Source: Polyangiaceae bacterium (GTDB lineage: Bacteria > Myxococcota_A > Polyangia > Polyangiales > Polyangiaceae). From it: a DNA stretch of 64,000 nt. The notes under the pieces are model-generated. The model was given only the letters and a program-made list of their open reading frames with translations. It had not been told where the DNA came from and ran no database searches. Below, in pieces: positions 1 through 47,257 of the stretch. Made by a program: the position numbers and the translations under genes. Numbering within the stretch: the stretch's first letter is position 1; each line of letters starts with the position of its first letter. The stretch is from contig JANRKO010000020.1 in assembly GCA_033763455.1 (NCBI GenBank), forward strand, positions 1-64,000, written 5' to 3'.

Positions 1-179
1 CCCATCACGATTATTTCCACGCTGTAACTTTTCCGCCCTCACTGCGTTGATAGGTGAGGCCATCGCAAGTATCCGTGCACTCCCAACAGCCCTCAGGAGG
101 GTCGCGTCACAAAACAAATACTTGTCATGCAAAGTATCCTCTTCACTCCCAGTAACCCAGGCAGGATACCTTGTTCCAC

Positions 180-203
180 AAGAGCGAAGCACGCTTCGCT
201 CTT
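180..203. terminator. Perfect 11-bp inverted repeat (AAGAGCGAAGC-AC-GCTTCGCTCTT) about 130 bp downstream of mukB; possible terminator or protein-binding palindrome
   Basis: Palindrome read directly from the sequence; no clear U-tract. Confidence 0.4.
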
Positions 204-331
204 CCAGAGAGAGAGCGCGTCAGATTTCGCCACATTCAACGCTGATACCCCTGCGGAAACCAAAAGCACCCGCATCGCTTGATACTCGTTGTAGCGCGCG
301 TGCCCATTACGCAGGCAAACTCAATGGGCTC

Positions 332-3300
332 CTAGAAATCGAACAAGTTACGCTGAACGGGTTTGGTCGTGTCGTTGCTTTCTGCGGCGTTGCTTTCTGC
401 GGTGTTGCTTTCTGCGGCGTTGCTTTCTGCGGCGTTGCTTTCTGCGGTGTTGCTCATATGTTCAACAACGCCTTCCGAAAGCTCCCCGGATGCACCCATC
501 TCGAGTGGGCGAAGTTCAGCTAGATCGCTTGCAACTGGCGCGTGAAGTTCAGCTGGCGCCTGGGCTTCTGGTAGTCTCGACGCGCTAACCTCGGTTTGTG
601 GAGGCCATTCTGGCATTTTGGCGCGGCGTCCGCTTACTAGCACCTCCTCTTTGCCATCGTCGGAAACGCGCCGCACGAGCCTGTAGGTCGTGTTGCCGTC
701 AGAGTGCGCCACCTCGGGCGCGGCTATCAGTAGTTGGAGATCCAGGTTTTCGCAAAGATCGAACAAGATTGCCAAGTTGTCTTGCGAAAGGCGATTAGCT
801 TCGTCCAAAAATAGAAACCGCAGGCACCCATCGGTACGCCGCGAACGCAAGAGGTTTGCGTCGCGCTCCCACTCCGTAAGTATCACCATCATCAGCGCTG
901 CACCGACACCAATGGCTTCACCCGTGGAAACCTGGGTTGGGTTCACGGCTTCCCACGTGTCCTTGGTTTGCCGCCGCACTTCCACACGCAGCTCCAGGTA
1001 TTCGCGATAATCGAGCAATTTTTGGCCACCCGTCCGCCCTCCGCCATAACGGCGGAAGATTTCGTCCATGGCCTCCTCAATCGGCAGGTTGGACTGAAAT
1101 AGTAGTTCTTGGGCGGTTCCCGTGCGGAGAGCCGCAAGCACCTGATCCATGCGCTCGACGCGCCCGAGCTCAACCCGGATACCGGCAATGCTCCCGAAGT
1201 GAACCCCTTCGAGGTACTGATTCAGGCGCCGCACCTGACCCGTGGCCTTGCGCAACTGGACTTCAATGCTGCGTGCTACATCTTCGGAGGTACCTCTTAG
1301 ATCTGTCTCCTGGCGCTCCAGGCGGCCCTCCAAACGCCCCAGATCCGCGCCGAGGTGGCTAAGTGCCTCCAAGGGATCCTCCACCTCTGCTACTTGCGGA
1401 GGCAAACGACGGCGCAACCACTGCCTGACGCTCATCCACTCCGCAAGGTACTGTTCCCATGGCGCGTGAGCCGCAGCAGTGCGAGAAGATTCATTCAAAG
1501 ATTCAGCAAGCTCGACTCCCCCGCGTGCAGCCCTCAGTCTATCCAGCAACAATTCGCGCTTGCTTCGGGACTCAGCCCACAAGCTCAGGCTACTTGCCTC
1601 AGATAGCTCGTTAGCCTCAGCCAGGCTCAGTGCACCCCCCAACACGCCCGACTCGCTCAAGGCCTCCCTTAGACGAGCCCAGGCCTCCTCTGAAGGCGCG
1701 CGCAGAGCCCGTTCTTTCTCTTCTGCAACCTTTGCGAGGTCAAGCGCACGCAACGCCTGTTTGTGACTGGCCTCGCGCAGCGCCACCTCTTTCAGCAGGG
1801 TGCGCTCCTCCAGCTCAAGAGCCGCCTGAGCACTGGCTGCACTCGCGAGTTGTGTCTGGCTTTCGAGCAACGCTTGGTCCGAAAGATCTTCTACCTGCTC
1901 AAGCGCAAGTTCCTCGTTGACTCGCTTTAGGTGGGCTGCCACTGCCAGCTTTTCGGCAGTCGCTGCTTGGGCTTCGGTAGTTAGGCGTTCCCAGACAGCC
2001 TCGGCTTCTAACAGCCGTTGCTCCACTTCTTCAAGCGCTCGACGGCTTGCTTCATGCTGGGCCTCAAGCTCTGGAACTAGCGCCGAGCTACTTGCCAGTC
2101 GTTCGGGCGCTTCGTGCCAGGCTAACGCATGCCTCCACTCTGCCAGCTGTTCGAGCGCCTCAGACACAGCGAACAGTTGATCTCGCTCGGCTTCCGATTT
2201 TTTCCGCTCCACTTCCCAAGCCGCGAGGCTCCGTGCATCCGGTGGAGGCATCGCCAGAGCCTCCACGTGCGCCTTTAGGCACCTCACCTCATGGGCGTGC
2301 AATGCCCACTTCGCACTTGCCTCACGAGCCTTCGCCACTGCCTGGCGTGCAACAGCAACATCGCTGGGTTCCGGTGCATTTTCTAGAAGCCAAGCTTCAG
2401 CCAGCAGTGGCCGCAACGCGTTGAGCTTGCCCTTCAGCGCCCGCACGCGTTCGGCTACCGCCCTGGCTTCTTGGCGACACGCGTCTTTCTCAGCTTCGCG
2501 CGCCGAATACTCCTTTTGTAGCTCGCCTTGACGTAAGGCGGGGTCCCCGTTCCTCCAAAGCTCAAACTCGCGCTCAAGCAGCTCAAGCGCTTCACGCCCA
2601 GCCTCGGCGCGTGGCAGCCATAATTGCAAGGTTTCCAGCTGCAATCCGTGCCGCTCCGCTTCTTCACGCAGCTGTTCCGCACGACGTTCTCGCGCTCGAC
2701 GGCTCAGTGTTCCGGTGGCTTCGACGCGAGTTACGCGCAAGCCGAACTCGGTAGGCACAATCACATCTACCCCGTGGGCACCCTTCACCTCGCGGGATGT
2801 TTGGCCGCCAACCAAGGTACCCGCCTGAATCAACCAAACCGTCGACTGCTCCCTAGGCGCTGCACTCAAGGCCGCAGCGGCGGCTTCCGGATCCATCACC
2901 ACCAGGGCATTTGCCAGTGGCCCGAGCTCCGCCTGAAGGCGATGTGCGGCCTCCACTTCGAGATCCTCAAAACGCTCCGCCAAGAGTTCCCCAGAAACCG
3001 CATCGCGCAGCCTGAGAAGTTCACCATCTGCGCCGCCAGCCTGCTCGAGCCCCTTGGCTTCCTCCAACAAACGCTCACGCTCCGCCGAAAGCCTATCCAG
3101 CTCGCGACGCGTGCGGCGGATCTCACTATCGAGCAGCTTCCGCTGCGCTCCCACCGCGGCGAGGTTCACGGGCAACACCCCTACCAAGGCTTCAGCCCGC
3201 TTCTCTGCCTGCGCAACCTGGCTGAAACGGGCACGCAATTCCTCTAATTGCTTGAGCGCCTGCCCGCACTTCGCAGCCTCCGCGATAGCGTTTTCCAGCC

Positions 3301-5023
3301 GCACCTCAGCGGCAGATTGGGTATCTTCCAGGGAAAGCAGCGCCTCATCGAAACCGTTGAGCGCTTTCGACAGTTCTTGTGGAGCAACCGGAAGCGCAGA
3401 ATCAAGCGCCTGTAGGCGACGCGTGAGTTGCTCCTTTTGGCGTAGCTCTGCGCTCTTTCGCTGTTCAACGTGCAAAAGTTCGTCCAAACGTACACTAAGG
3501 CGGTCGCACTCTTCCCACGTCCGAAGCTCGTCGCGCGCCACAGCGTACAGATCCGAGACGTCGGTTAGATCTCCGTGAAGGGAGCCAAGAGCTTCGTGCG
3601 CCAGCTGATATTCGGCGCGGCGGCGCTCAGCCGTTTCGATCTCCCGATCGCGTCGACCGCGGGCTTGGTCGAGCTCATTTCTACGTGTCGAGGTTGCGAG
3701 CAGGCGTTCCTCCACGCTAGCAGGGTCGAACTCTGGCTCCCTGAGCAACTCTCGTACCTGGGCAAGCGATTGAACGGCCCGGCGGTAGGCGTGCGCACGC
3801 CGATGCAGCTCCTCGAGCCCTTGCTGCAAATTGGCCAACCCTTGCGCGCTCCGCGCAAGGGCATCCTGGGCTCGAAGGCGCTCCTCTTTGGCTTCTTTTC
3901 GGCGACTATCAGCCACTTTTTGGCTTGCAGTGGCCGTATCCGAAACGCTTTCTGCCCTTTCTAGTTCTCGGCCCAGCTCGTCCGCTTTTGCCGCTAGCCC
4001 CCGAGCCCGTTCCAGGCGCTCGGTTCGCTTAGAGAGCGTCTCCAAGCTAGCTTTCAATTCGCCTAGCTTCGTCATCATCGCGCTTTGACGTCGGCGGGAT
4101 TCTCCCAGAGTAAGCTCAAGCTCGGTAACCCTGCTCTGTTCGGTCTCCCGCTCGGCGCGACACCGCTCCAACTTATCTCCGCTTTCACGGATCGATCTTT
4201 CCGTGGCGAGCACCGCGCGGCTGAACATGGCGTGTCCAGCCGTATAAATACCGCTAATTTCGTGCTCCAAGAGGCGCGCCTGGCTCACCTCTAAGCGTGT
4301 TCTGCGGCACGCATCTAGGTTCGAACGCATACGCCCCAACGTACCGAGGAGGCCCCCCTCCTCTTTGAGCAGGAACTGCCGCAGATCAGTCGTAAGGGCA
4401 CGGGAGATGCCGCCGGTCATGCTGGTTCGCAGCATGTCATTGAACTTGCCCTTCTCTTCGTCGCTCGCTAGCCGGAGCGGGCTAATCCCCAACTCAAACA
4501 GCATCGAGAAGTAATCCTTCAGCGTCGGAAAGGTGGCAAAGCCGGCGCCCAGCTTCGCAGCATTCTCCCCAAGCTCGCGCAGCGTGGGCACTTCTTCGTG
4601 AACTTCTGACTGTAGCAATAAGAGTTGCTGGGTACGCACTTCGGGCTTGAGATCCGAAATCAAAAATGGCGTCAATTCGAGCGTTGGCTCAGCTTTTCTG
4701 AGCGCGTGCACGCCTATCAACAATTCGGAACCATCACTCCGAAGGAGCCTCAGGGCCGAATACGATGGCCGGCCGAGCTCCCCCAAACGGCCCCAAATGC
4801 CCTTATCGCCGCCCGTTCCGGCGCTTTCACCGAGATTGGTAAAGCGGAGCCGGGAAAGATCGGGGAAGAGCACCAAATACGCGGCGATCATCACCGTCGT
4901 CTTGCCGGCCCCATTGGCACCTTCGAGGGCCGTTACGTGGCGATCCAGCAAATAGCTTTCACAAAAGACCCCCTTCCAGTTCACCAAACACAGCTCAACG
5001 GCTTGCGTCCGTGTCACGCTCAT
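332..5023 (-). CDS. mukB: Chromosome partition protein MukB (SMC-like ATPase)
   Basis: N-terminal LVNWKG, Walker A GANGAGKTT, long coiled coils around a central hinge, LDYREYLEL, signature VSTGEAIG, Walker B FLFLDEANRL, LQLLIAAPE; 1563 aa; ATGA overlap with mukE. Confidence 0.95.
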   Translation of the reverse strand: MSVTRTQAVELCLVNWKGVFCESYLLDRHVTALEGANGAGKTTVMIAAYLVLFPDLSRLRFTNLGESAGTGGDKGIWGRLGELGRPSYSALRLLRSDGSELLIGVHALRKAEPTLELTPFLISDLKPEVRTQQLLLLQSEVHEEVPTLRELGENAAKLGAGFATFPTLKDYFSMLFELGISPLRLASDEEKGKFNDMLRTSMTGGISRALTTDLRQFLLKEEGGLLGTLGRMRSNLDACRRTRLEVSQARLLEHEISGIYTAGHAMFSRAVLATERSIRESGDKLERCRAERETEQSRVTELELTLGESRRRQSAMMTKLGELKASLETLSKRTERLERARGLAAKADELGRELERAESVSDTATASQKVADSRRKEAKEERLRAQDALARSAQGLANLQQGLEELHRRAHAYRRAVQSLAQVRELLREPEFDPASVEERLLATSTRRNELDQARGRRDREIETAERRRAEYQLAHEALGSLHGDLTDVSDLYAVARDELRTWEECDRLSVRLDELLHVEQRKSAELRQKEQLTRRLQALDSALPVAPQELSKALNGFDEALLSLEDTQSAAEVRLENAIAEAAKCGQALKQLEELRARFSQVAQAEKRAEALVGVLPVNLAAVGAQRKLLDSEIRRTRRELDRLSAERERLLEEAKGLEQAGGADGELLRLRDAVSGELLAERFEDLEVEAAHRLQAELGPLANALVVMDPEAAAAALSAAPREQSTVWLIQAGTLVGGQTSREVKGAHGVDVIVPTEFGLRVTRVEATGTLSRRARERRAEQLREEAERHGLQLETLQLWLPRAEAGREALELLEREFELWRNGDPALRQGELQKEYSAREAEKDACRQEARAVAERVRALKGKLNALRPLLAEAWLLENAPEPSDVAVARQAVAKAREASAKWALHAHEVRCLKAHVEALAMPPPDARSLAAWEVERKKSEAERDQLFAVSEALEQLAEWRHALAWHEAPERLASSSALVPELEAQHEASRRALEEVEQRLLEAEAVWERLTTEAQAATAEKLAVAAHLKRVNEELALEQVEDLSDQALLESQTQLASAASAQAALELEERTLLKEVALREASHKQALRALDLAKVAEEKERALRAPSEEAWARLREALSESGVLGGALSLAEANELSEASSLSLWAESRSKRELLLDRLRAARGGVELAESLNESSRTAAAHAPWEQYLAEWMSVRQWLRRRLPPQVAEVEDPLEALSHLGADLGRLEGRLERQETDLRGTSEDVARSIEVQLRKATGQVRRLNQYLEGVHFGSIAGIRVELGRVERMDQVLAALRTGTAQELLFQSNLPIEEAMDEIFRRYGGGRTGGQKLLDYREYLELRVEVRRQTKDTWEAVNPTQVSTGEAIGVGAALMMVILTEWERDANLLRSRRTDGCLRFLFLDEANRLSQDNLAILFDLCENLDLQLLIAAPEVAHSDGNTTYRLVRRVSDDGKEEVLVSGRRAKMPEWPPQTEVSASRLPEAQAPAELHAPVASDLAELRPLEMGASGELSEGVVEHMSNTAESNAAESNAAESNTAESNAAESNDTTKPVQRNLFDF
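374..454 (-). repeat. In-frame 15-bp tandem repeat (GTTGCTTTCTGCGGY x5 plus a partial copy) encoding SN[A/T]AE x5 in the MukB C-terminal tail
   Basis: Units start at 374, 389, 404, 419, 434 and 449 (partial). Confidence 0.95.
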
Positions 5024-5811
5024 TCCTCGAACTCGTTATCGTCTTCTTCTGGGTCGGCCTCGTTTGAAAGCTCCCCGGCGTCCGAATCAGCGAGCTCATC
5101 GTCTCCTTCGTCTGAGCGCTGAGCCCTGCCCGTCTCGTCAGTGCCTAGAGCTCCCTCAGCGTCTTCGAGTTCTAGCGCATCGGCTCCATCGCCAAGCACC
5201 GCCTCGCCTTTAGCAACGAGCTTGGCGAGTGCCTCAGCCGGGGAGTCGGCGCCACGCACCGGATCCGCGAAGCGCAGGAGCGCTGGGCGCAAACGCACCT
5301 GCTCAGCCGTTAGGATCTCGACAAAGCCAAGCCCTGCGAGTCGCCGAATCGCGTCGTACACCTTGTGGCGAACGGCTTCTTGGGCCACGCGCTCGTCTAC
5401 CCGACGTTTTTTGCCATGTAAAACGCGCATCAACGCGTCCGTACCCATCACACTCGCTAGGTGCGAAAGCACTTCCTCGCGCGTAACATTCCCGCCTTTC
5501 TGCACTGTGAGCGGATCCAAATACATGAGCGCCAAAGCCTGCCCCACGAGCATCTCCGGCACACTGAGGTGCCGCTTCCCCAAACGATCGGTGGTCGGCA
5601 GTAGGTAGAAGTAGCCGTCGGCTACGTGCACGAGTTCGGCCCCGAAGCGCTTGTAAAAAGGCTCTAGAAAGCCATTAGCATCAACCAAAAATTCGTACCA
5701 ACCCACGTCGTGCTGGTCGATATGGCGCCCACGCCGCAGGGCCACATCTACCTCGGGGAAGTGTTCGTGAAGAACGGCCTCACCCAGATCTGCGAAATGC
5801 CCAGAACTCAT
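5020..5811 (-). CDS. mukE: Chromosome partition protein MukE (KITE subunit)
   Basis: FPEVDVALRRGRHI, ELVHVADGYFYLLP and EMLVGQALALMYLDP resemble MukE; acidic tail; ATG at 5811 overlaps the mukF stop (ATGA). Confidence 0.92.
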   Translation of the reverse strand: MSSGHFADLGEAVLHEHFPEVDVALRRGRHIDQHDVGWYEFLVDANGFLEPFYKRFGAELVHVADGYFYLLPTTDRLGKRHLSVPEMLVGQALALMYLDPLTVQKGGNVTREEVLSHLASVMGTDALMRVLHGKKRRVDERVAQEAVRHKVYDAIRRLAGLGFVEILTAEQVRLRPALLRFADPVRGADSPAEALAKLVAKGEAVLGDGADALELEDAEGALGTDETGRAQRSDEGDDELADSDAGELSNEADPEEDDNEFEE

Positions 5812-7136
5812 GATCCCGTCCCCGCATGCTTCAGGCGCCATTGTTCAATCACCAAAGCGTCGTTCACGGTAACCCATGGGCGTTGGCTATTTTTGGGTGG
5901 GCGCGCAAGCTTTGCCACAACCTGCGCCACACGTCCCGCAACTAGGAAGCGTTCTTGCTCAGGAAAATCCTCCGTAACGCGCGCGGTGATTTCGGTGAGA
6001 TCCAAAAGCCCCTCCGCAAGGAGCGCGACAACTTTAGCCTCAATTTCTGCCAAAGGATCCCGCTTCATCTGCTCGGGCTCATCTTTCTGCTCTTCCTTCT
6101 CACGTCGCGGCCGCCGTACCGGAACCGGGGGCTCGGGCGGCAACACACTGCGCAATAAGCGGAGGCCAGGAGTTGCGGCCACCGTGAGCGCAAAGGGGCG
6201 CGCGGCGTGCTCGGAAAGCTGAGCTCTCAAACGCTGATTGAGGGCACGTGCAGGATCTAGCCGCACAATATCCCGAAGGTAACGGTGCACGTATTCGTAA
6301 TACTCAGACCACGCTCTTTGGCGAGCCGCACCCCAACTCGCAATGCGGTCGATTTGGTCCATCACACGCTTGGTAACGGCCTCGCCTTCGGGCCGCTCCC
6401 GTGCAGCCGCAAGCTCCGAAATGTCAGCCAAGATGCTAAGTAGTTGGTGCGTATCGCGCAGTAAGATCTCGTTCAGCTCGCGCAGCGTACGTGCGGTGCT
6501 ATCGAGCAAGGTTTGACAGCGATCGATGGCATTGAACCAATCTACCTCGAGCAGCTTGGACATTTCGCGCTGGAATTCTTCCTGCTGCACGTCGAGCCCG
6601 CGCTGGCGCCGTTCGATACCAGAGATGAGCTCGTTCACGGTGACCTTGAGCGGTGCCGTGACCCCCGTGCGCCACTCATCTTCGGTGTGGGCTGCCTCAG
6701 CGACCGATAAAATTTCGCTCAGGCTAACCAAGAGTGAGCGTGTGAGCAGCGTCAGGCTCTCGCGAGTGAGAACCTCTTCGTCGAGGTAAAACTCCACAAT
6801 CGCCGTCGCCAACCGGGAGAGTGCGAATTCGCCCGCGCGTACAACTCCTCTTCCATCCACGCGCGTCAACATGCGCTGTTCGCGTAAACGCCGAATGGCG
6901 TGGGTGGCTCGGGCCTTTACGTTGTCAGCCCCAGGCTCAAGCGTTTGGCACGTGAGCTCAAACCCATCCACCAGCTGAGCTTCGGTGAACGAGGTGAGCC
7001 CAGCTTGGGCGCCACGGGCGAATAACAGCGCCACAAACCCAAGATCGAGCGTCGAGAGCTCAAGGGAAACCTTGCGCTCCCCTAGCTCTCTCAAGAGCCG
7101 CATCGGGTCTGTGCCCGTCATGCTCGCTTCGGCCAT
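5808..7136 (-). CDS. mukF: Chromosome partition protein MukF (kleisin)
   Basis: 442 aa; winged-helix ATHAIRRLREQRMLTR, DWFNAIDRCQTLL, TLRELNEIL, DRIASWG..W..Y..VHRYLR..VRLD; F-E-B gene order. Confidence 0.92.
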   Translation of the reverse strand: MAEASMTGTDPMRLLRELGERKVSLELSTLDLGFVALLFARGAQAGLTSFTEAQLVDGFELTCQTLEPGADNVKARATHAIRRLREQRMLTRVDGRGVVRAGEFALSRLATAIVEFYLDEEVLTRESLTLLTRSLLVSLSEILSVAEAAHTEDEWRTGVTAPLKVTVNELISGIERRQRGLDVQQEEFQREMSKLLEVDWFNAIDRCQTLLDSTARTLRELNEILLRDTHQLLSILADISELAAARERPEGEAVTKRVMDQIDRIASWGAARQRAWSEYYEYVHRYLRDIVRLDPARALNQRLRAQLSEHAARPFALTVAATPGLRLLRSVLPPEPPVPVRRPRREKEEQKDEPEQMKRDPLAEIEAKVVALLAEGLLDLTEITARVTEDFPEQERFLVAGRVAQVVAKLARPPKNSQRPWVTVNDALVIEQWRLKHAGTGS

Positions 7137-7150
7137 TTAGCCCGTGGCCC

Positions 7151-9439
7151 TCAGGAAAGGCCCGTAACAGGGCCCAAAATCGAGCTACCGAGACCACGAT
7201 AACCCGCGTCGAACACAAGCTCTACCACCTCGCTATCCAACATCTCGTCGGTGCAAGCGACCGCTTTCGGATACACGGGAACTCGGCTGCCAGCACGCAC
7301 ATAGAGGGGCATTCGATCCAGAGGAGAATTCACGTCCCGAAGCCAGCGTGCACCGGAAAGCTTTTCCCCAGACCAAAAATCGACCCACTCCCCTTCTGGC
7401 AGATAAACATCGCGCCGCCCCGCATCATTCATGACGGGCGCCACCAAGAACGAATCACCCAAGTAATACTGATCATCGATGTGCCACACTGTTTGATCGC
7501 GCTCGTGCTCCACCAAAAGTGGCCGCAATACCGGTTTTCCGCTCGTTACGCAGGCTGTGCCCTCTCGGCGGATGTACGGAATAAGTGCGTAGCGGAGCTT
7601 CCACCACTTGCGCACCAAATCCGCAACCTCTGGAAAATCATACGGCTCCCGCGGGGAAGTGCCATGGTACCGGATGTGCGACGTAAAGACGCCAAACTGA
7701 GTCCAACGCACATACAGATTATCACTCGGCCAGCTGTTCATGAAGTCGGGCACGCCATGGAAGCCGGGCACATCGTGGCTCCAAAAAGCAAAGCCCGAGA
7801 GCCCGAGGTGCAGCCCTCCGCGCAACGAGCCCGCCATTCCCTCCCAGGAACAAGCACAATCTCCGCCCCAGTGAATGGGGTAACGCTGAGCACCGGCCCA
7901 GCTTGCGCGTGCCCAAATAACGCCTTCACCCGTAACCTTCTGAGTGATCTCGAAGGCAGCGCGTTGGTAAAGAAGCGGGTAAAGGTTCCGTAGCTGATCC
8001 GCCGGGAGGCTCGCATAATCGGCCCACATGTCGATGGTTTCGCCAAAATCAGTCTTAATGGCTACCGCACCCATCTTCAGCAGCCTCTCCAGCATGCCTT
8101 GGTACCAAAGGACGGCCTCTGGATTACTGAAATCGATCTGCCCAGCAAAATCCTGAGCTGAAAAATCGGAGCGGCTCGTGTCTTCAATCTTCTTCCGTGG
8201 AGCCAAGAAGCGCTTCTCCTTGGCGTACTCGAGGAGGCGATTGCCTTCACCGATGTTCGGGGTCTGCCAGAGCGTCACGCGATAGCCAATGTCACGAAGC
8301 TTCTTGAAGAATCCCGGGGGATCGGGAAAACGGGATTCACTAAACTCCCATTCACAGACCCAATCTTTAGCGAACCAACCCGTGTCGAGGTGCAGCACGT
8401 CGCACGGAAAATCTTCCGCGCGCAGCCGCTCGGCAATGCCCGTCACTTCTTCGTCGGAAAAATACGTCATCCGGCTCATCCAGATCCCGTAAGTAAAACG
8501 CGGTACATCAGCGGGCTTTCCGGTGATGCTCTGATAGTTTTGCAGCACGCGGGTCACGCTCCCGCCACCCACTAGAAAGAGGTCCAGTGCCGGCTCGTTC
8601 ACGACCCCTTGCGCGGCGCGTGTCGATAGATCGGCCAGCGAGAGCCGAACAGCTGTAGAAGTGTGCACAAACAAGCCGTAGGGGCGGCTTGAGAGGTAGA
8701 ACGGGACGTTCTTGTAGGTGCGGCGGTTGTTCACCCCGAGCCCGTCTAGGTTCTCCAAGTCGAAGGTTCGCCCCGAAAGATCCATCTTAGCGAAACGTTC
8801 TCCCGTTCCTGCGAAGCGCTCCTGTGCATCGCTCTCCAGAGAAAACGTTGCACGGACCGGTGCACCCTCGGAGGTGATATAGCCAAGTGCGATGGAGTCG
8901 ACTTGTTTGCGAAAGAAGTGGTCATGCGCGGCTAACGTCACGGGCGTTTTGCCATCTGGGAACAGGGTAATCTCGGGCGATTCGTAGGGCGGAGGCAGAA
9001 GCTCACTCCACTTTTTGATCGGGGCGGCCTGGGTGTTAATGCGCACGCGCACCATCCCCGCAGCATCAACAACATCCCAACCGAACTCTGTCTTAAATAC
9101 CTTCAGCACTTCTTTAGTTGGCAAGGTGTCCGGTACTAACATCTCGCTCTGGCGCTGACACGCCATGCTCTTATTCGAAGGATCAAACACGAGCGTGACC
9201 CGCAGCACCTCCGAACCAAGCGCGGATATATGAAGAGCGTGCACGGTCGGCGCCGCGTCCAGATCCACCGTGAACTGTGTGTACGGCGGGGAGCACGGAC
9301 GAAACGGTAGCCGTACGACGACGCCACGAGCGTCAGCCTCTACGCCGAGCGGTTTGCCCGCCACCCAGAGGCGCTCTCGGGGGTCGTTTTCGGTAGGAAG
9401 GTCGAGAAGATCTTGAAGGACTTGGCTATGTTGTTTCAT
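7151..9439 (-). CDS. GH31 glycoside hydrolase, YicI-like alpha-xylosidase
   Basis: YKNVPFYLS, HLDTGW, KTDFGE (nucleophile), HWGGD (acid/base), WSHDVPGF, YVRWTQFG; start placed at MKQHSQ (9439). Confidence 0.88.
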   Translation of the reverse strand: MKQHSQVLQDLLDLPTENDPRERLWVAGKPLGVEADARGVVVRLPFRPCSPPYTQFTVDLDAAPTVHALHISALGSEVLRVTLVFDPSNKSMACQRQSEMLVPDTLPTKEVLKVFKTEFGWDVVDAAGMVRVRINTQAAPIKKWSELLPPPYESPEITLFPDGKTPVTLAAHDHFFRKQVDSIALGYITSEGAPVRATFSLESDAQERFAGTGERFAKMDLSGRTFDLENLDGLGVNNRRTYKNVPFYLSSRPYGLFVHTSTAVRLSLADLSTRAAQGVVNEPALDLFLVGGGSVTRVLQNYQSITGKPADVPRFTYGIWMSRMTYFSDEEVTGIAERLRAEDFPCDVLHLDTGWFAKDWVCEWEFSESRFPDPPGFFKKLRDIGYRVTLWQTPNIGEGNRLLEYAKEKRFLAPRKKIEDTSRSDFSAQDFAGQIDFSNPEAVLWYQGMLERLLKMGAVAIKTDFGETIDMWADYASLPADQLRNLYPLLYQRAAFEITQKVTGEGVIWARASWAGAQRYPIHWGGDCACSWEGMAGSLRGGLHLGLSGFAFWSHDVPGFHGVPDFMNSWPSDNLYVRWTQFGVFTSHIRYHGTSPREPYDFPEVADLVRKWWKLRYALIPYIRREGTACVTSGKPVLRPLLVEHERDQTVWHIDDQYYLGDSFLVAPVMNDAGRRDVYLPEGEWVDFWSGEKLSGARWLRDVNSPLDRMPLYVRAGSRVPVYPKAVACTDEMLDSEVVELVFDAGYRGLGSSILGPVTGLS

Positions 9440-9585
9440 TGGGAAAATCCCTTCCACTTGGCCCCCCCACAGGAAGGCGCGGCGTCCCGCATGCCATGAA
9501 TCGCGAGCGCTTGCACGAGGGCTTTGCAGCCCTCCTCGTTCTGCGCTCTCATTGACGGATCCCGGCCCCGCTGGTCCCGAACTGC

Positions 9586-10425
9586 ATGCCTCCGACACCC
9601 CCAGCTCCCGACTCCCCCAAGGTACCCTCTGAGTCGCGTTTGCCCGTCAGCCGCGACACTATGTCTCGTTTGGCGCTCAACATGCAGGGGCAGCCGAACG
9701 ACACCACGTGCGGCCCCACATGCCTTCAAGCCACGTACGAATACTTCGGCGATCCGATCACTTTGGATGAGGTTGTGGCCGAAACTCACGAACTTATTCA
9801 GGGAGGCACGTTGGCTGTGCTGCTCGGAACCCATGCACTCAGCCGTGGCTACGACGCCATCGTCTACTCCTACAATCTTGAAGTTTTCGATCCAACCTGG
9901 TCGACGCTGGATTCGAGCGAGCTCGCGGAAAAATTGGACGCTCGACGCAGGTTGTCCCCCACGCTTGCGTCCCGTGGGCTGGGCCACAACCCGAGGCTGC
10001 CCGTCGCGCTTGACGCGTACCACCGGTTCCTCACTCTCGGTGGTGCCTGTCGTTTCGACGAACTCTCCGCGGACCTCATTCGACGCTACCTTAACCTCGG
10101 ATTACCAATCCTGACGGGCGTGAGTGCGACCCATCTTTACCGCTGCCGGCGCATCAACGACGAAGGCAAATACGACGACGTAGGCGGCATGCCAGAAGGC
10201 CATTTTGTCGTACTTTCTGGCTACGATGCGGAACATCAAACCGTGCAAGTGAGCGACCCCTGGTCCGAGGCCCGCCACACGGCGCGCAACTACTGGGTGA
10301 GCATGGATCGGTTGATCAACGCCATCTTGCTCGGAGTGCTCACCTACGACGCCAATCTTCTCGTGATCAAACCTAAGGCTGGCCCCCACTCGGAGCGACC
10401 TTTGAGCCGCCACGTTGTTCCCTGA
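9586..10425 (+). CDS. Papain-fold peptidase C39-like protein
   Basis: QPNDTTCGPTCL (Cys), GHFVVLSGYD (His), VSDP (Asp); start could be 9661. Confidence 0.8.
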   Translation: MPPTPPAPDSPKVPSESRLPVSRDTMSRLALNMQGQPNDTTCGPTCLQATYEYFGDPITLDEVVAETHELIQGGTLAVLLGTHALSRGYDAIVYSYNLEVFDPTWSTLDSSELAEKLDARRRLSPTLASRGLGHNPRLPVALDAYHRFLTLGGACRFDELSADLIRRYLNLGLPILTGVSATHLYRCRRINDEGKYDDVGGMPEGHFVVLSGYDAEHQTVQVSDPWSEARHTARNYWVSMDRLINAILLGVLTYDANLLVIKPKAGPHSERPLSRHVVP

Positions 10426-10446
10426 TCCTTTGCCTAAAAAGCCACC

Positions 10447-11922
10447 ATGCGCGCCCTGATTATCGTCAATTCCCCGAAGGATTGGCCCTTTGAGCTCCCG
10501 GATGTGGACGTTGTTTCAGCGCGCCGCTACCTCACCGACGCTACCTACAGCGAGCTCCGCGGAGTTCATGTTTTCAATCTGTGCAAGAGCTATCGCTACC
10601 AGTCGCTCGGGTACTACGTTTCGTTGCTGGCCACAGCTCGCGGCCACAAGCCCACGCCATCGCTTTCCGCGATCCAGGATCTGAAAGCTATCGAAATTGT
10701 CCGAATTCGTTCCGATGAGTTCGATGATTTGGTGCAAAGCAGCCTCAAGAGCCTCACCTCCACCGAATTCGTTTTGAGCATCTATTTCGGCCAAAATCTC
10801 GCCGTTCGGTACGAACGCTTAAGCGCCCACCTCTTTCGCACCTTCGGGGCGCCGCTCTTGCGAGCCACCTTCCACATCGACGCCGACCAGCACTGGAACC
10901 TTCAAAAGATCGGCCCAATTGCCGCCGATCAGATCCCTGAAGCCCACCGGGATTTCGTGCTTACCGCGGCTCGTGACTATTTCAGTATAAAGCGGCACCA
11001 CGTACCTAAGAGCCGCGCTACGCGTTACGATCTTGCTATCCTCTACGATCCCAGCGCCACTGACGGCCCCTCCGACGAAGCGGCAATCAAGAAGTTCTGC
11101 CGCGCCGCCAACCAGCTGGGCATGGATGCTACCCTCGTAGATCGCAGCGACTATGCGTCCATTGCTGAATTCGACGCACTTTTCATCCGTGAGACCACCA
11201 ACGTCAACCACCACACCTACCGTTTCGCGCGAAGGGCACAAGCCGAAGGTCTTGTAGTAGTGGACGATCCTGATTCTATTCTTCGCTGCACCAACAAAGT
11301 ATTTCTCAATGAGCTCTTGTCACGGCACCGCATTCCGACGCCGAAGACGGTGGTTCTTCATCGCGATAATGTGCACCTTATCGCAACCGAGCTTGGGTTC
11401 CCATGCATCCTTAAGCAGCCTGACAGTGCCTTTTCGCAAGGGGTTATCAAGGTACAATCCGAAACCGAGCTACTTGAGCAAGCCGATCGGATGTTCAACA
11501 AGAGTGAACTCATTATTGCGCAATCTTACCTCCCGACTTCTTTTGACTGGCGGATCGGCATCTTTGATCGCAAGCCCATATGGGCCGCCAAGTATCACAT
11601 GGCACAAGGCCACTGGCAGATCATCAAACAAGGAATGGCTGGGCGGCGTTACGGCCGGGTAGAAGCAGTTCCGTTGAGCGAAGCACCGCAGGTGGTGGTA
11701 AAAACGGCGCTCCGCTCCGCCAATCTCATCGGCGATGGCTTATATGGTGTGGATGTGAAAGAGGTGGGGCGGCGAGCGTACATCGTCGAAGTAAACGATA
11801 ATCCGTCCATCGACTCAGGCTTCGAAGATGGCGTGCTTAAGGCCGAGCTCTACCGATCCGTGATGCAGGTATTTTTTGATCGGCTGGAACATCGCTTCGC
11901 CCGCCACGGAGTTCGGCGCTAA
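10447..11922 (+). CDS. RimK-family ATP-grasp ligase with an N-terminal RLAN-type extension
   Basis: NLCKSYRYQSLGYYVSLLA.ARGH N-domain; FIRETT, LKQPDSAFSQGV, DWRIG, YGVDVKE, EVNDNPSID. Confidence 0.9.
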   Translation: MRALIIVNSPKDWPFELPDVDVVSARRYLTDATYSELRGVHVFNLCKSYRYQSLGYYVSLLATARGHKPTPSLSAIQDLKAIEIVRIRSDEFDDLVQSSLKSLTSTEFVLSIYFGQNLAVRYERLSAHLFRTFGAPLLRATFHIDADQHWNLQKIGPIAADQIPEAHRDFVLTAARDYFSIKRHHVPKSRATRYDLAILYDPSATDGPSDEAAIKKFCRAANQLGMDATLVDRSDYASIAEFDALFIRETTNVNHHTYRFARRAQAEGLVVVDDPDSILRCTNKVFLNELLSRHRIPTPKTVVLHRDNVHLIATELGFPCILKQPDSAFSQGVIKVQSETELLEQADRMFNKSELIIAQSYLPTSFDWRIGIFDRKPIWAAKYHMAQGHWQIIKQGMAGRRYGRVEAVPLSEAPQVVVKTALRSANLIGDGLYGVDVKEVGRRAYIVEVNDNPSIDSGFEDGVLKAELYRSVMQVFFDRLEHRFARHGVRR

Positions 11923-11923
11923 G

Positions 11924-13147
11924 ATGACATTTCACCTTTTTGAACGTTTTGGCGTCGAAATCGAGCACATGATTGTGCAAGAAGCCACGCTCGACGTCTT
12001 GCCGGTAAGCGACCAACTGTTACAGCTAGCAAGCGGCGGTACGGAATCTGAAATCGAAGTGGGCAACGCAGGTTGGTCCAACGAGCTCGTGCTGCACGTA
12101 CTGGAGTTTAAGACTAAAGAGCCGGTTCCAAGCCTTGCGCCAGTTGCGAAAGATCTGCACGCGGGCGTGAGCCGCGCCAATCAGCTCTTGAAGCAGCTCG
12201 GGGGGCGCTTGCTCCCCACCGCCATGCACCCGTGGATGGATCCGTCCCGAGAAACTCACCTGTGGCCTCACGATAGCGCGGAAATCTACAGCGCCTTCAA
12301 TCGCATATTCGATTGCCGTGGCCACGGTTGGTCCAATCTACAAAGTGTGCACATCAATCTGCCGTTTTCTGGCGATGCAGAGTTTGTGCGCCTCCACGCG
12401 GCCATTCGCCTCGTGTTGCCGCTCTTGCCCATGCTGGCCGCCAGTTCCCCGGTAGTCGAAGGAATTGTCACCAGTACTCTCGATAGTCGCTTGGCATTCT
12501 ACCGCAAAAACTGCGCGCGTTTGCCCTGCGTAACGGCGCACGTGATCCCTGAGGCCGTGAGCTCGGAAGCTGAGTATCGCGAACGCATTTTCGCGCCGAT
12601 TGCTAACGCCGTGAGGCCCTTTGACCACGAACACGTTTTGGATCCGGAGTGGGTCAACGCCCGTGGGGCTATCGCTCGCTTCAGCCGCGGCAGCATCGAG
12701 ATCCGAGTGCTGGATGTGCAGGAGTGCCCCGCCATGGATCTTGCGATCGTTCACGCGGTGGTGGCCCTGGTGCGCCACCTGGTCGAAGAACGCGGCCCGA
12801 ACGTAGCAGTGCAGCAGAGCTTCGACGAACAGAGATTGCTGCGGCTCTTCGAAGCGGGAGTGCGCTATGGTTCGCAAGCCCAGCTCGAAGATAAGGGCTA
12901 TCTGGAAGCACTCGGAGGAAATGGCCAGACAGGCAGGGCGCTTTGGGCAAGCCTGTGCGCCCTGTTGGTGAAGGAGGGCCACTTGCCCAGCGCTGAGGCC
13001 TCTCGCTTGGAGTGCATCCTGCGCCAAGGCACGCTCGCTGAGCGGATTTTAGCTAGGCTCGGCCGTGCACCGACGCGTGAACGCCTGCTCGCTGTCTACA
13101 CCGAGCTCGGGCATTGCCTCGATCAGAACCTCACGTACGAGGTATGA
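11924..13147 (+). CDS. Glutamate-cysteine ligase family 2 (GCS2)-like carboxylate-amine ligase
   Basis: FGVEIEHMIV, SNELVLHVLEFKT, PTAMHPWM, NLQSVHINL, NARGAIARF, IEIRVLDVQE. Confidence 0.88.
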   Translation: MTFHLFERFGVEIEHMIVQEATLDVLPVSDQLLQLASGGTESEIEVGNAGWSNELVLHVLEFKTKEPVPSLAPVAKDLHAGVSRANQLLKQLGGRLLPTAMHPWMDPSRETHLWPHDSAEIYSAFNRIFDCRGHGWSNLQSVHINLPFSGDAEFVRLHAAIRLVLPLLPMLAASSPVVEGIVTSTLDSRLAFYRKNCARLPCVTAHVIPEAVSSEAEYRERIFAPIANAVRPFDHEHVLDPEWVNARGAIARFSRGSIEIRVLDVQECPAMDLAIVHAVVALVRHLVEERGPNVAVQQSFDEQRLLRLFEAGVRYGSQAQLEDKGYLEALGGNGQTGRALWASLCALLVKEGHLPSAEASRLECILRQGTLAERILARLGRAPTRERLLAVYTELGHCLDQNLTYEV

Positions 13148-13863
13148 GCATGGGCAAGGCTCGGCACTCCCGCGGCACGCAACTCCTGGTATCCTGCGAA
13201 CACGCTAGCCCCCACGTTCCAGCGCGTTTCGCTCCGCTATTTCAGGACGCCAGGCCTCTACTTTCAACTCACCGCGCGTTTGATCAAGGCGCGCTCGGAG
13301 TTGCACGTGCCTTAGCAACGGCTTGGGAATGCCCTCTCATCACCGGCGAGGTAACACGCCTCCTGATCGATCTTAACCGCTCTTACGGCAACCGCGGGCT
13401 TTACTCAGAATTCACCCGCCAGCTACCACGTGCAGAAAAACGCTACCTATTGGAGCGCTACTACCTACCCTATCGGCAGCGCATATTCGCGGCTATCGCC
13501 GAGCCGCCTAGCCACGCACCCGTCATCCACCTCAGCGTGCATTCATTTACGCCGAGCCTGGACGGCAAAGTCCGAAACACGGAGGTGGGGCTGCTCTTCG
13601 ATCCAGCCCGCACTCGCGAGTTGCGGATTGCCGAAGCGCTACGCACGGCGTTCTTGCGGGTCTGCCCAACCGTCCGGGTACGCTTCAACTACCCCTACCG
13701 AGGCACCTCCGACGGCCTCACCCAAAGCCTCCGGGGTTGGTTGGCAAACGAACGGTACGCGGGCATTGAGGTTGAGTTCAACCAGGGGTGTGAAGCGTTG
13801 TGGCGTCGGCGCGCTTTTCAAACCGCCCTCGCGCGGGCTTGGGCCGAGGCCCTTGCCACTTAA
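13144..13863 (+). CDS. N-formylglutamate amidohydrolase-family (Zn peptidase fold) protein
   Basis: [48 protein letters not shown]. Confidence 0.85.
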
Positions 13864-25734: not shown

Positions 25735-26583
25735 TTACCTGTCCGCTCGGGATCTGCAGCCGAGCTGTGCGCCTAGCCTCCCAAGCCCCGCCTCAAGCAG
25801 GGCCCCGCGTTTCGCCTCCAGCAGTGGGAAAACGTCGAGGTGTGCTCGGCGCTCTACCTCGTCGATCGAGATCTGGTGATCGCAAAAATTGGCGTGTAAG
25901 TCAGTCGTTTGCTCGAACGCGAGGCTGAGCGTTTCGAAGCTGTTTTGATCCCCAGTGCTCACCACCTTCCAATAGCCGCTCGGCACCCGATGTGGCTCGT
26001 CAGCTTTGGGCAACAGCGGCATTTCCTGCTCGAAGAGCGGGCCAGTTAACACCCAAACCTGCGCCGTGCGCGCAAGCTGCCGCTCCAACTCCTCAACCTT
26101 CATCCAGGCACCTTGATTAAGCGAAGCCGCCTGCGGGGTAATGTTCGAGAGATAGTTGAGGGTTTCCCAGAAGGGCGATCCCTCAAAGCTGCCCAGCGGG
26201 GCTTGATGGCCACGGTCCCAGCCAAGCAAGCGAGAGGCCTGGCTAAAGTCAGGCGGCTCCAGCGTTGCTGCTTCGGGTAATGCTGGATCCGCGCGCCAGT
26301 GGCGCGGGCGATGCCGGCCAAAATTGGCTGCATCGACGCGGTAGGCCACCCAATCAGCGAACTTGGTAACTGGATTCGCACTCAGCGAATAAAGCGGTCG
26401 CTCCAGCAGCAGGTTCGCGCCTGGTGCTCCAGCAGGGCAACCGAACAAGCATGCTTCTGCTGGTGCTGCCGGCTTCGCCTCAGGTGCATCTTGACCTTGG
26501 GAAAGGCTCAATAAGGCGACTGCCGCCGCGATGAGCAGCCCCACCACGAGGGCCCTTCTGACGAACGCGCGAAAAAGTCTCAA
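25735..26583 (-). CDS. Exported DNA/RNA non-specific endonuclease (NucA-type)
   Basis: Signal/TM N-terminus, ADWVAY, DRGHQAP, SNITPQ, LNQGAW..VE, VPSGYWKV. Confidence 0.92.
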   Translation of the reverse strand: MRLFRAFVRRALVVGLLIAAAVALLSLSQGQDAPEAKPAAPAEACLFGCPAGAPGANLLLERPLYSLSANPVTKFADWVAYRVDAANFGRHRPRHWRADPALPEAATLEPPDFSQASRLLGWDRGHQAPLGSFEGSPFWETLNYLSNITPQAASLNQGAWMKVEELERQLARTAQVWVLTGPLFEQEMPLLPKADEPHRVPSGYWKVVSTGDQNSFETLSLAFEQTTDLHANFCDHQISIDEVERRAHLDVFPLLEAKRGALLEAGLGRLGAQLGCRSRADR

Positions 26584-27570: not shown

Positions 27571-28977
27571 CTACGCAAGAACGCCGGCGAGTGGCCCGTC
27601 CCCAAACCCGGTATCACCAAACGAGGCTACAGGCATGCCCATGGCATTCATGAAGGTTACGTGCAGCTTGTTATGCGGTTGCGAAGTAAAGGCGATGTGT
27701 TGGCCTGTTTTGATCTTGCCGCCCCCGGATCCGAAGATGAAAGCGCGAATATTATGGTAACTGTGGTCCGAGGCATAAGAGACCTCTGAGCACCAGAACG
27801 CCATCGAATTGTCCAAGAGCGTACTCCCGCCTTCGTTCACCGAGTCCATTTTCCCGATTAGGTAGGCGACTTGCTCGGCATACCAACGGTTGATCCACGC
27901 CATCTGCGCGTCCGAGGTCGGGTCACCCCCGTTATGCGAAATAGTGTGATGATCTTCAGTGATGCTGCCGCATGCACCACAGCCGGCAGTGTCGATCCAC
28001 TCGAGCCGTTCGAGTGATCGTGCATACGAATATTGCAGCGAAGCGACGCGTGTTAACCCGCACGCCAGTGCCAGCACGAGGAGATCTGCCTGCTGCTTGC
28101 CCACGGCCGGAAAGTTCGCGTGCAAAAGGTGATCTGCGAGAGGCATATATCCGACGGCTTGGCTGCAGGAGACGGGGCCAGCGGCTGCCCCCGACGCGAG
28201 GCCGCGTTCCACTTCGCGAATCATGCTCAAGTGCTGATCAAGCCGCACCTTGTCCGACGCGGGGACCGCTGCGTTGACGCTTTCGAATTCTTTGATCACG
28301 TAGTCGATAACACTACGGCGCCGCGCAAGATTCGCATCCAACATGCCCGGAACAATAGGAGCCGCGGTGACACCGGAAAACAAGCGATTGTACGCAGCCA
28401 AGGGGCTATCTTCTGGAGAGACGGGCTGCGTGGGGCCGGCATAGACCATGCGGCTAAAGGGGTGATTGCCGTAGCGCACGCTCGTTTGCACGCCAAACTC
28501 GAGAGATTTGTAGCGACTACTGGCTCCAACCGCAGTGGCTATTTGTTGATCGACCGAAATGCCGTTCGCAAAGCCCACGGGGTAGTCCGTATTGTCCTCA
28601 GCCTGAACCAACTTCGGATCCACCTCGTAGCTCTTACATGTCAACATGTGCCCCATGCCAACCGCGTGTTGATCACCAACATCTCCGGCGTCGGCGCTCA
28701 GCATATCGATCCCGCTCAACGCCAGGAGCTTATTCTTGAACGGGAGAACGGGAGCACTTTCAGTGCCCAAGGTGAAGTTTGCACCCACGCCCTGGGGCAT
28801 AAAAAGGCTAAAGTTGTTGGTCCCACACGGCGTGTAGAGCACAACAAACCGAGACGCCGGTGCGGCAGCATGTGCGGCACGCGGCACCAAGGACTCTAAG
28901 AAAGGGAGCCCGACTGCAATACCACCAGCAGCCTTCAGGAATTTGCGGCGCGCGGCGAATGGAAACTTGGCATTCAT
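27571..28977 (-). CDS. DUF1552-family protein with a Tat-like signal
   Basis: RRKFLK, LPFLESL, SVDQ.IA, SLEFGV, RRSVID, LACGLTRVASL, LLDNS. Confidence 0.85.
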   Translation of the reverse strand: MNAKFPFAARRKFLKAAGGIAVGLPFLESLVPRAAHAAAPASRFVVLYTPCGTNNFSLFMPQGVGANFTLGTESAPVLPFKNKLLALSGIDMLSADAGDVGDQHAVGMGHMLTCKSYEVDPKLVQAEDNTDYPVGFANGISVDQQIATAVGASSRYKSLEFGVQTSVRYGNHPFSRMVYAGPTQPVSPEDSPLAAYNRLFSGVTAAPIVPGMLDANLARRRSVIDYVIKEFESVNAAVPASDKVRLDQHLSMIREVERGLASGAAAGPVSCSQAVGYMPLADHLLHANFPAVGKQQADLLVLALACGLTRVASLQYSYARSLERLEWIDTAGCGACGSITEDHHTISHNGGDPTSDAQMAWINRWYAEQVAYLIGKMDSVNEGGSTLLDNSMAFWCSEVSYASDHSYHNIRAFIFGSGGGKIKTGQHIAFTSQPHNKLHVTFMNAMGMPVASFGDTGFGDGPLAGVLA

Positions 28978-28992
28978 ATCATGCAGCTCCGT

Positions 28993-30774: not shown

Positions 30775-31193
30775 AACGACCGTCCTGCCGCAAGGAGCCA
30801 AAGCTGACTCTCGTAGCGCTAACTGGAGGTTGACAACTTTGAGAGGCGCACTTCACCGTGCGCCAGATACACACAGAGCGTGACAGCTTGGAGTTCCGCT
30901 GTCAGCAGACACTTTGACTCCGCGCTCCACTTTTTGGATCACATGGTTTTGCTGAACTCCGAGAACCGGGCCACGTGCCCTAGGCCGTGAGCCCCACGTG
31001 CTGGCATTTTTGCGCCAGAAACTGACGTAATTGTCCGAACAATTCGCTATTAACTGTCTGCAAAGTCCGCCTTCCGCTCTGCTAATCTCTCAGCGTGAAT
31101 GAACCTTCTAGCGGTACGCGCACGTGTCACACGAATTTCGAACCACGCTGACGCTAGCCCCTCACCTGCTACATTGGGACAAGGAGCGCCGTT

Positions 31194-38370: not shown

Positions 38371-38372
38371 GA

Positions 38373-40526: not shown

Positions 40527-40610
40527 GGTTGGTAGCTCTCCACTTCCCTACGGGCTCTCTGGGCCGTTTCGATAGGTCACTTGAGCAAGAGTGCGTGGGA
40601 TAATGTGCGT

Positions 40611-45570: not shown

Positions 45571-45580
45571 CTCGGTGCTC

Positions 45581-47254: not shown

Positions 47255-47257
47255 AGC

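Follow-up and report, generated by a model that had tools for sequence, protein, structure and literature searches.

A nuclease-free Muk-type operon in a Polyangiaceae bacterium and the candidate clamp-binding tail of its MukB protein

Described Muk-like and Wadjet-group systems

MukBEF is thought to derive from a plasmid-defence (Wadjet-type) motor through loss of the nuclease, and a nuclease-free Mks complex, Pseudomonas aeruginosa MksBEF, coexists with SMC. Described here is a mukF-mukE-mukB operon at one end of a contig from a Polyangiaceae bacterium (GenBank assembly GCA_033763455.1, contig JANRKO010000020.1, positions 1 to 64,000, with the whole of this 64,000-nucleotide stretch being referred to as the window), which a preliminary description, made from the sequence alone, had read as an Escherichia coli-type MukFEB condensin operon. 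As judged from its proteins and their trees, the operon has branched off from Muk-like Wadjet-group systems that bear the nuclease and adjoin MukBEF, and has itself no nuclease gene. On the best of the readings weighed below, it probably supplies the chromosome with a second, nuclease-free condensin that works beside SMC-ScpAB and is coupled to replication.

Operons of four Muk-like genes, as well as nuclease loss across the Wadjet group, have already been published, with MukBEF being the group member that lacks MksG/JetD (Bürmann et al., 2025; PMC7617805). The rows available from Data S1 of that paper (Cell) give FEBG for Sorangium cellulosum, Nannocystis, Haliangium, Myxococcus, and Desulfovermiculus, and FEB for E. 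coli; the 870-row file contains no species name starting with "Polyangi" and no Minicystis, Sandaracinus, Chondromyces, or Labilithrix, although the clade described here may stand in the table under another name. Judged from the table rows, Sorangium-type FEBG operons are the nearest relatives; the trees presented below hold loci fetched for this analysis. According to the entries available, the FEBG operon of S. cellulosum So ce56 (CAN95859-CAN95856) resembles that of the window in coding for three Muk-type proteins in the same order, its MksB head sequence being clearly of the Muk kind, with LSTGEAIG among the head motifs. Unlike the operon in the window, FEBG operons contain an MksG/JetD gene overlapping the mukB stop codon, and MukB of the jetD type is tailless and ends in QxxLF in none of 129 proteins. 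A precedent for Muk-like complexes outside the Gammaproteobacteria is found in the operon of Desulfovermiculus halophilus, whose "MukBEF", approximately 26% identical to that of E. coli, was purified and imaged in 2018, according to the text available (10.1101/464701). This operon, compared here by description, differs from that of the window in being listed as FEBG, with MksG and a shorter MksB (58404-61988; PMC7617805).

In mycobacteria, MksB likewise belongs to a nuclease-free Mks complex found beside SMC, as described in the available text (PMC11329512). The MksBEF of P. aeruginosa and the Mycobacterium complex are similar in concept to the system described here, each being a nuclease-free Wadjet-group motor on the chromosome alongside SMC-ScpAB. 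However, both belong to the Mks/Jet sequence family, whereas the proteins of the window fit the Jet models hardly or not at all; furthermore, the available text of the papers found reports no clamp-binding tail for Mks complexes. The MukBEF systems of E. coli and Photorhabdus are closer in form, sharing with the window the domain families, protein sizes, overlapping gene order, positions of the ATPase motifs, and lack of a nuclease. The E. coli system nevertheless differs in its distant MukB (25-28% identity, by BLAST), in its nuclease loss, which is separate on the trees, and in its genomic setting—that is, with SMC-ScpAB and ParB present here, and MatP, SeqA, and cmoM not found. No paper covering both MukBEF and Myxococcota was found. 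Relative to this literature, what appears to be new is the MukB tail and clamp motif of the nuclease-free clade, the four-gene operons themselves being known.

The operon, its relatives, and the nuclease gene

The genes for a kleisin, a KITE protein, and a MukB-like SMC ATPase (Table 1) form one co-directional operon, which is the gene set of the Wadjet group, and their mukF-mukE-mukB order, overlapping frames, and lack of a nuclease gene fit MukBEF sensu stricto. The mukE and mukB genes overlap by 4 nt (ATGA), and mukF and mukE by 34 nt provided that mukE starts at the ATG at 5841. Pfam matches were obtained for MukF (MukF_M, 1.7e-25; KicB winged helix, 6.9e-10), for MukE, in which the MukE family (1.4e-34) outranks MksE (2.6e-28), and for MukB (MukB N-terminal PF04310, 1.3e-70; MukB_hinge PF16330, 4.6e-26, 92 bits against a cut-off of 27). 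Against NCBIfam NF003422, MukB was found to score 836.7 bits (cut-off, 699), with residues 4-1477 aligned to positions 3-1476 of the 1486 in the model, and its top sequence match in the PDB is MukB 9gm6_A (2.2e-94). The respective NCBIfam equivalogs are also the best matches of MukF (residues 11-427 on positions 8-428 of 440) and of MukE (near full length), but at 314.6 and 118.2 bits these lie below the cut-offs of 407 and 250. Against the PADLOC Jet models of Wadjet types I-III, MukF and MukE each gave 0 hits, and MukB reached 29 bits with JetC1, with no single stretch passing.

Within MukB, STGEAIG is located at residue 1366, the identical position in E. coli MukB (1366), and LDYREYLE at residue 1337, with LDYRNYLE as the E. 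coli counterpart at 1338; both Walker motifs, GANGAGKTT (A) and LFLDEA (B), are intact. The translationally coupled, full-size mukF-mukE-mukB operon with Muk-specific motifs reported in the preliminary description was thus confirmed in its open reading frames (ORFs), overlaps, domains, and both motifs. Its remark that smtA is missing also proved correct: no smtA/cmoM gene was found upstream of mukF, the same-strand neighbour there being a GH31 glycosidase gene 14 nt off. This glycosidase was considered as a partner of the system and rejected, since it lies beside mukF only in the same-genus locus L043 and in 0 of the 19 other related loci. A scan for promoters and terminators over positions 1-10500 of the window gave counts at chance level.

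The operon was compared with 20 related loci, comprising the DNA around 18 sampled MukB matches and two further close loci. The order mukF-mukE-mukB is kept in all 20, and their MukF proteins are 40-78% identical to that of the window. A fourth gene, coding for approximately 325 residues and with its start overlapping the mukB stop, is present in nine of the 20. Its product, a Toprim nuclease of the JetD/MksG kind, which many Wadjet-group members lack and on which the defence function depends, matches Pfam JetD_C in all four cases examined (28.9-39.4 bits; cut-off, 22) and PADLOC JetD1 in both of the two cases examined. These nine are four-gene Wadjet-like operons built of Muk-type proteins, and their PADLOC scores do not exceed 45.5 bits for JetC1 and 15.4 bits for JetA/JetB. 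Their MukB proteins are 34-63% identical to that of the window over the best aligned segment. Within the deep nuclease-free clade, to which the window belongs, identity to this MukB is 41-46%, and Polyangiaceae-type genomes supply hundreds of proteins that are 41-68% identical to it.

A division of the relatives into two Muk lineages by hidden Markov model score, three of them reaching 1100-1290 bits versus 837 bits here, was also rejected, BLAST showing none of them to be nearer to E. coli; the true divide among relatives that score differently on the MukB model is the jetD gene. The database label "chromosome partition protein MukB" covers nuclease-bearing and nuclease-free proteins alike, and for the nuclease type the name masks a probable defence system. 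In an all-against-all comparison of ORFs across the 20 loci, no neighbour other than F, E, B, and JetD, together with antisense shadow ORFs, was found to be shared, so no replacement partner is visible near the operon. Two individual deviations were noted among the loci: a mukE frame of 648 residues, with approximately 400 extra C-terminal residues, in genome G051 (L035, 5784-7730), and a gap of approximately 2.2 kb between mukE and mukB in genome G123 (L038, 12138-14350).

Trees were calculated for MukB under LG+G4, for MukB under a C20 mixture (a quick tree), and for MukF, leaving out L009, which probably duplicates L043. In each tree the 12 rows without the nuclease gene group together as a single clade, with support in the Shimodaira-Hasegawa-like approximate likelihood ratio test (SH-aLRT) of 92, 98, and 99, respectively. 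Five rows with jetD make up the sister clade, joined to them with support of 100, 100, and 99. Four further jetD rows, from other families, fall outside this join. All 12 nuclease-free loci with known context come from Polyangiaceae-type genomes. The simplest reading of these trees is that jetD was lost once, on the stem of the clade containing the window and apart from the E. coli branch.

The E. coli sequence attaches at the base of the tree, beside the longest jetD branch (L040), and the approximately unbiased (AU) test rejected uniting E. coli with the rows that lack jetD (p = 0.002, for a group named after the tree had been seen). With E. coli as the one gammaproteobacterial sequence included, neither the trees nor this test group the protein with gammaproteobacterial MukB to the exclusion of nuclease-bearing systems. 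Acquisition of a canonical E. coli-type MukBEF from a gammaproteobacterium is therefore largely refuted and would now be very surprising: MukB passes the NCBIfam equivalog cut-off, and gene order, sizes, and key motifs are as in E. coli, but the MukB identity of 25-28%, the MukF and MukE scores below their cut-offs, and the AU test all contradict such an origin, as do the failure to find MatP and SeqA in the genome and the lack of cmoM upstream. The identity, the cut-offs, and the AU test likewise led us to reject the label "E. coli-type". As for the question raised in the preliminary description of whether the proteins group with MksBEF/JetABC, the answer is divided: by profile they are Muk and not Mks or Jet, and by descent they fall within a Wadjet-group branch that bears the nuclease and adjoins MukBEF.

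The nuclease-type proteins show a different taxonomic pattern. The best 120 homologues of one nuclease-type MukB (L027, 7763-12190) are 61-95% identical to it, 110 of the 120 being 1471-1474 residues long, and are named as Sorangium, Labilithrix, Steroidobacteraceae, Burkholderiales, Hyphomonadaceae, Xanthomonas hyacinthi, and Pseudomonas oryzihabitans. Such identity across several taxa at near-uniform length suggests a pattern like that of a horizontally moving system. The nuclease-free homologues listed are of variable length, with Polyangiaceae, Pendulispora, and one metagenome-assembled genome (MAG) labelled Pseudomonadota as their only names.

Table 1. Coordinates of the operon and associated features in the window
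Feature	Position	Strand	Description	Basis
mukF-like kleisin gene	5808-7136	minus	442 aa	Pfam and NCBIfam profiles
mukE-like KITE gene	5020-5841	minus	273 aa, acidic C-terminal tail	Pfam and NCBIfam
mukB-like SMC ATPase gene	332-5023	minus	1563 aa	Pfam, NCBIfam, PDB match
MukB C-terminal tail	335-625	minus	97 aa past the last conserved Arg; acidic, Pro/Ala/Ser-rich	translation
QRNLFDF	335-355	minus	last seven MukB residues	matches QxxLF consensus
15-bp tandem repeat	373-454		5.5 copies, in tail-coding mukB	Tandem Repeats Finder score 150, 95% matches
Convergent gene, 3' end	2-523	plus	5'-open ORF; sits at the place of jetD in relatives	Pfam-negative
GH31 glycosidase gene (context, outside the system)	7151-9598	minus		Pfam Glyco_hydro_31 domains

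The MukB tail and the sliding clamp

The commonest clamp-binding motif of bacteria has been given as QL[S/D]LF, more generally QxxLF, in the available text of a recent paper (PMC12309361). The tail of the MukB protein in the window ends with this published consensus, QRNLF occupying residues 1557-1561 of 1563, and the 15-bp repeat encodes five AESN[AT] repeats within the tail. Nuclease-type MukB proteins end 3-11 residues past the last conserved Arg, and E. coli MukB has a tail of 22 residues with no QxxLF; in the 12 nuclease-free loci the tails, which are acidic and rich in Pro, Ala, and Ser, were found to measure 13-97 residues. The tail of the same-genus locus L043 is 58 residues long and free of AESN[AT] repeats, as against 97 residues here, indicating that tail length is evolving quickly.

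The motif was surveyed on a 141-row tree, in which 131 rows, none of them a jetD locus, fall into the clade delimited by the 12 nuclease-free loci. QxxLF was observed within the last 12 residues in 29 of the 131 rows (26 of 127 distinct C-termini), and its background frequency was 110 in 15882 twelve-residue windows taken from protein bodies; 500 shuffles of the last 40 residues gave a mean of 0.04 and a maximum of 1. Neither QxxLF nor the variant endings counted below occur in the nuclease-type set, that is, in its nine loci and 120 homologues (0/129). MukB of the nuclease-free clade thus seems to have gained a disordered tail, often ending in a clamp-type motif. Across the genome, QxxLF endings are found in five of 4534 ORFs of at least 150 residues, namely MukB, three ORFs identified by Pfam (a family-B DNA polymerase ending in GSQMRLFS, RuvB, and a type III glutamine synthetase), and an unknown 159-residue ORF. 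The C-terminus of this RuvB (contig C6, 584051-585118) reads DAPKQGRLF, and Pol IV of the genome has no QxxLF at its C-terminal end. Pol II binds the clamp via a C-terminal motif.

A complex of the tail (MukB residues 1524-1563) with two copies of DnaN from the same genome (gene at 281-1426 of locus L003), the latter supplied with a 24-row family alignment, was predicted by folding. Scores of 0.60, 0.58, and 0.60 were obtained, with three controls at 0.00-0.02, and the verdict was "weak support"; in the calibration, 116 of 157 solved complexes and two of 215 mismatched pairs attained the pass mark, and a score of 0.60 or less was recorded for only 18 of the 157 and for both of the mismatched pairs that passed. 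The runs showed a contact agreement of at least 53% and a predicted local distance difference test value (pLDDT) for the partner of at least 43 (43-45). From this weak fold result and the clade-specific terminal motif, we hypothesize that the complex is coupled to the sliding clamp. A former Wadjet motor may, on this tentative proposal, have been rewired to the replisome, with the tail binding DnaN and the extruder thereby being loaded or held on freshly replicated DNA.

The ending Qxx[LF](x)[FL] could also be real and conserved and yet bind another partner, or serve as a regulatory or degradation signal, an interpretation that we regard as doubtful though worth weighing. Many endings (QGAFRFES, QRALPFES) deviate from strict QxxLF, fold support is weak with the partner pLDDT at 43-45, and two of the five QxxLF-ending ORFs, the type III glutamine synthetase and the unannotated 159-residue ORF, are apparently not DNA-acting. 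However, a Q at position 1 followed by hydrophobic residues at positions 4/5 or 4/6, at the end of a disordered tail, is the known format of clamp binders (PMC12309361), the family-B polymerase of the same genome has a similar ending, and the fold controls gave 0.00-0.02. A search of titles and abstracts found no contact between MukB and the clamp in print. E. coli CrfC, described as a clamp-binding nucleoid partition factor in the text available (PMC6374313), is a precedent for a partition factor that binds the β clamp, but it is an unrelated dynamin-like protein, and its role in segregation has been questioned (PMC8379921).

Host genome, distribution, and proposed role

The assembly comprises 6.56 Mb in 92 contigs and is 93.7% complete; the window opens one of these contigs, covering its first 64 kb, and the contig ends 331 nt past mukB. 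The host is described as a soil or sediment myxobacterium. The preliminary description had named a gammaproteobacterial or chimeric contig as a refuting outcome, and no sign of either was seen: the closest loci are Polyangiales/Polyangiaceae records, the named homologues are Polyangiaceae MAGs and Pendulispora, the G+C fraction of the window is even (0.555-0.617), a genome of the same genus shares the six-gene arrangement RimK-like / C39-like / GH31 / mukF / mukE / mukB, and the sole ParB_N match of the genome lies on this contig, approximately 90 kb from the operon.

A canonical SMC is encoded in the genome as a 1254-residue frame matching both SMC_N halves, and ScpA, ScpB, and ParB were also found. 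With these present, the Muk-like complex is an additional machine of the SMC type and not a replacement, in which sense the "second condensin" offered as one option in the preliminary description was borne out. An SMC-hinge ORF of 1220-1235 residues is also present in all five of the other nuclease-free carriers. Searches of the 93.7%-complete genome gave 0 matches for MatP, 0 for SeqA, and 0 for JetD_C, with the control genome positive in each case, and tblastn of three JetD-like proteins against the whole assembly gave a best E value of 0.067, approximately 6% of the genome being unassembled. Directly past the mukB stop, a convergent gene is located both here and in L043 (a 405-residue ORF). 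Of the gene set that co-occurs with strict MukBEF, taken from the available text of PMC4255302, neither the co-occurrence with MatP and SeqA nor the replacement of SMC-ScpAB is seen in this genome. The further claim that the operon works without its usual partners was upheld for MatP and SeqA, which were not found, and for cmoM, which is not upstream, but not for Dam, since a Dam-like D12-class adenine methyltransferase is present (217 bits; contig C60, 79980-80711; L024, 1393-2268, minus strand). Its gene is flanked by a typA/bipA-like gene and a Pfam-negative ORF of 445 residues, with no obvious restriction partner within 3.7 kb.

Each of the 12 nuclease-free loci retains the three ORFs at full length and the ATPase motifs intact, and the Walker A, signature, and Walker B motifs show little or no variation across all 21 Myxococcota MukB proteins compared. 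Relative to the same-genus copy, nonsynonymous divergence (dN) is 0.19-0.29 and synonymous divergence (dS) is saturated (1.9-4.3 or not computable), making the dN/dS of approximately 0.04-0.09 indicative only. Loss of the plasmid-restricting nuclease is what would be expected of a functionless, decaying Wadjet-like remnant, but with full-length ORFs and intact ATPase motifs in 12 nuclease-free loci, dN far below dS, and a conserved terminal motif gained after the loss, such decay is highly improbable. Within genera the operon is stable, being present in all three genomes of the genus and in both sampled genomes of each of two other genera (g3 and g8), and the same-genus copies are sisters on the tree (L031 with L033 in g8, and the window with L043). 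No mobile-element or defence genes were found among 47 further ORFs scanned in the window, the neighbourhood holding metabolism, two-component, and chemotaxis genes.

A continuing role in defence or surveillance, in which the complex would compact or silence plasmids without cutting them or would recruit an unlinked nuclease, is unlikely, though it has evidence on its side: the nearest relatives outside the clade are four-gene operons with JetD/MksG, carriers are scattered patchily through the family and the phylum, and SMC-ScpAB is already available for chromosome work. Against these points, a JetD-like gene was not found in the genome, no replacement partner is shared across the 20 loci and no defence or mobile genes lie nearby, the clade is deep (41-46%) and intact, as expected after a change of function, and the clamp-type tail points to replication over foreign DNA. 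The Wadjet-like surveillance role suggested in the preliminary description accordingly stands as ancestry, in view of the jetD-bearing relatives, and is unsupported as a present function because JetD was not found in the genome.

The favoured reading remains that of a second chromosomal condensin without a nuclease, given an operon that is found beside SMC-ScpAB and ParB and in a genome where MatP, SeqA, and JetD were not detected; the proposal of a chromosomal role draws on the missing nuclease, long conservation, an ordinary neighbourhood, and stability within genera. By homology, the products are expected to act as a motor like MukBEF and JetABC: MukF, MukE, and MukB would form a complete SMC complex, most likely a dimer of dimers, entrapping DNA and extruding loops at the expense of ATP. 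Its ancestry would lie in a Myxococcota branch of the Wadjet group with plasmid-restricting mukF-mukE-mukB-jetD/mksG operons, with no import from Gammaproteobacteria. In the lineage of the window, found in Polyangiaceae-type genomes only, the nuclease gene would have been lost once and the motor kept under purifying selection, and MukB would afterwards have gained its disordered C-terminal tail, ending here in QRNLFDF. This tail may tether the complex to DnaN clamps located at the replication fork or behind it, and tethering may aim loading or loop extrusion at newly replicated DNA.

Several observations weigh against this reading. The root of the tree is a single very long E. coli branch, the only gammaproteobacterial sequence, meeting the long branch of L040, and jetD status covers the 21 loci with context and not the 119 database proteins. 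When the variants QGAFRFES, QRSFGFES, QRALPFES, EQLGLL, and QLGLAL are added, the motif is counted in 74 of 131 clade rows, but these patterns were written after the endings had been seen, and related sequences are non-independent. In the other 57 of the 131, 20 with short and 37 with long tails, the motif is absent, the short-tailed proteins named from cultured Pendulispora being among them, so clamp binding, if real, is not fixed in the clade. The weak fold support may also reflect memory of solved clamp-peptide structures, and since clamp-peptide complexes are among the solved structures, the pass shows likeness at most. With strong MukB matches (E ≤ 1e-98) of both operon types in 22 of 101 family genomes, 14 of them above the cut-off, and in 10 of the 301 genomes sampled from the phylum (this one counted), across six families, the patchy distribution resembles that of accessory or defence genes rather than of core chromosome machinery. 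The distance from dnaN to mukB is 0.88 and 2.5 Mb in two closed nuclease-free genomes; it is 2.3 and 2.9 Mb in closed jetD-type genomes and approximately 20 kb in genome G007. Proximity of the operon to the origin, tried as a rule, is contradicted by these closed-genome distances of 0.88-2.9 Mb. Finally, in the hinge patch corresponding to the E. coli topoisomerase IV/MatP site, the first part is partly alike and the second is unaligned.

Other genes of the window were recorded in passing. The run at 7151-13863, which codes for the GH31 protein, a C39-like peptidase, a RimK-like ATP-grasp protein with an RLAN domain, a GCS2-type ligase, and an N-formylglutamate amidohydrolase, may be a peptide-modification or small-molecule cluster, its first three genes being kept in the same-genus relative. 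A gene for a DNA/RNA non-specific endonuclease (6e-37) lies beside those for DUF1552 and DUF1592/1588/1587/1595/1585 proteins (25735-26583, minus strand; 27571-30801, minus strand), a pair typical of Planctomycetes-like genomes. Two chemotaxis clusters (37330-51130 and 58706-61507) code for CheA, CheW, two methyl-accepting chemotaxis proteins, CheR, CheD, two CheB, and CheX, and a flagellin gene is located at 56403-57230 on the plus strand (Flagellin_N, 6.6e-41; Flagellin_C, 1.3e-23). Classical myxobacteria glide and are not known to be flagellated.

In E. coli, DNA-bound clamps mark lagging strands, whose mid-cell position is MukBEF-dependent, and MukBEF has been suggested to be able to discriminate the two strands (Mäkelä et al., 2021, in the text available; PMC8379921). 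The Polyangiaceae clade looks like a second, independent change from defence motor to condensin, in the branch closest to MukBEF, and because its four-gene relatives are still living and SMC-ScpAB has been retained, it shows what changes when such a motor turns to the cell's own chromosome. A tail with a clamp-type motif would be a possible way of aiming a motor at replicating DNA without MatP or a ParB-type loader, which links this clade to the MukBEF-dependent positioning of clamp-marked lagging strands (PMC8379921). If the proposed contact is true, it would be the first direct physical link between an SMC complex and the clamp in bacteria, parallel to PCNA-coupled control of cohesin in eukaryotes, and would supply a mechanism for the suggestion from E. 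coli that MukBEF tells lagging from leading strands.

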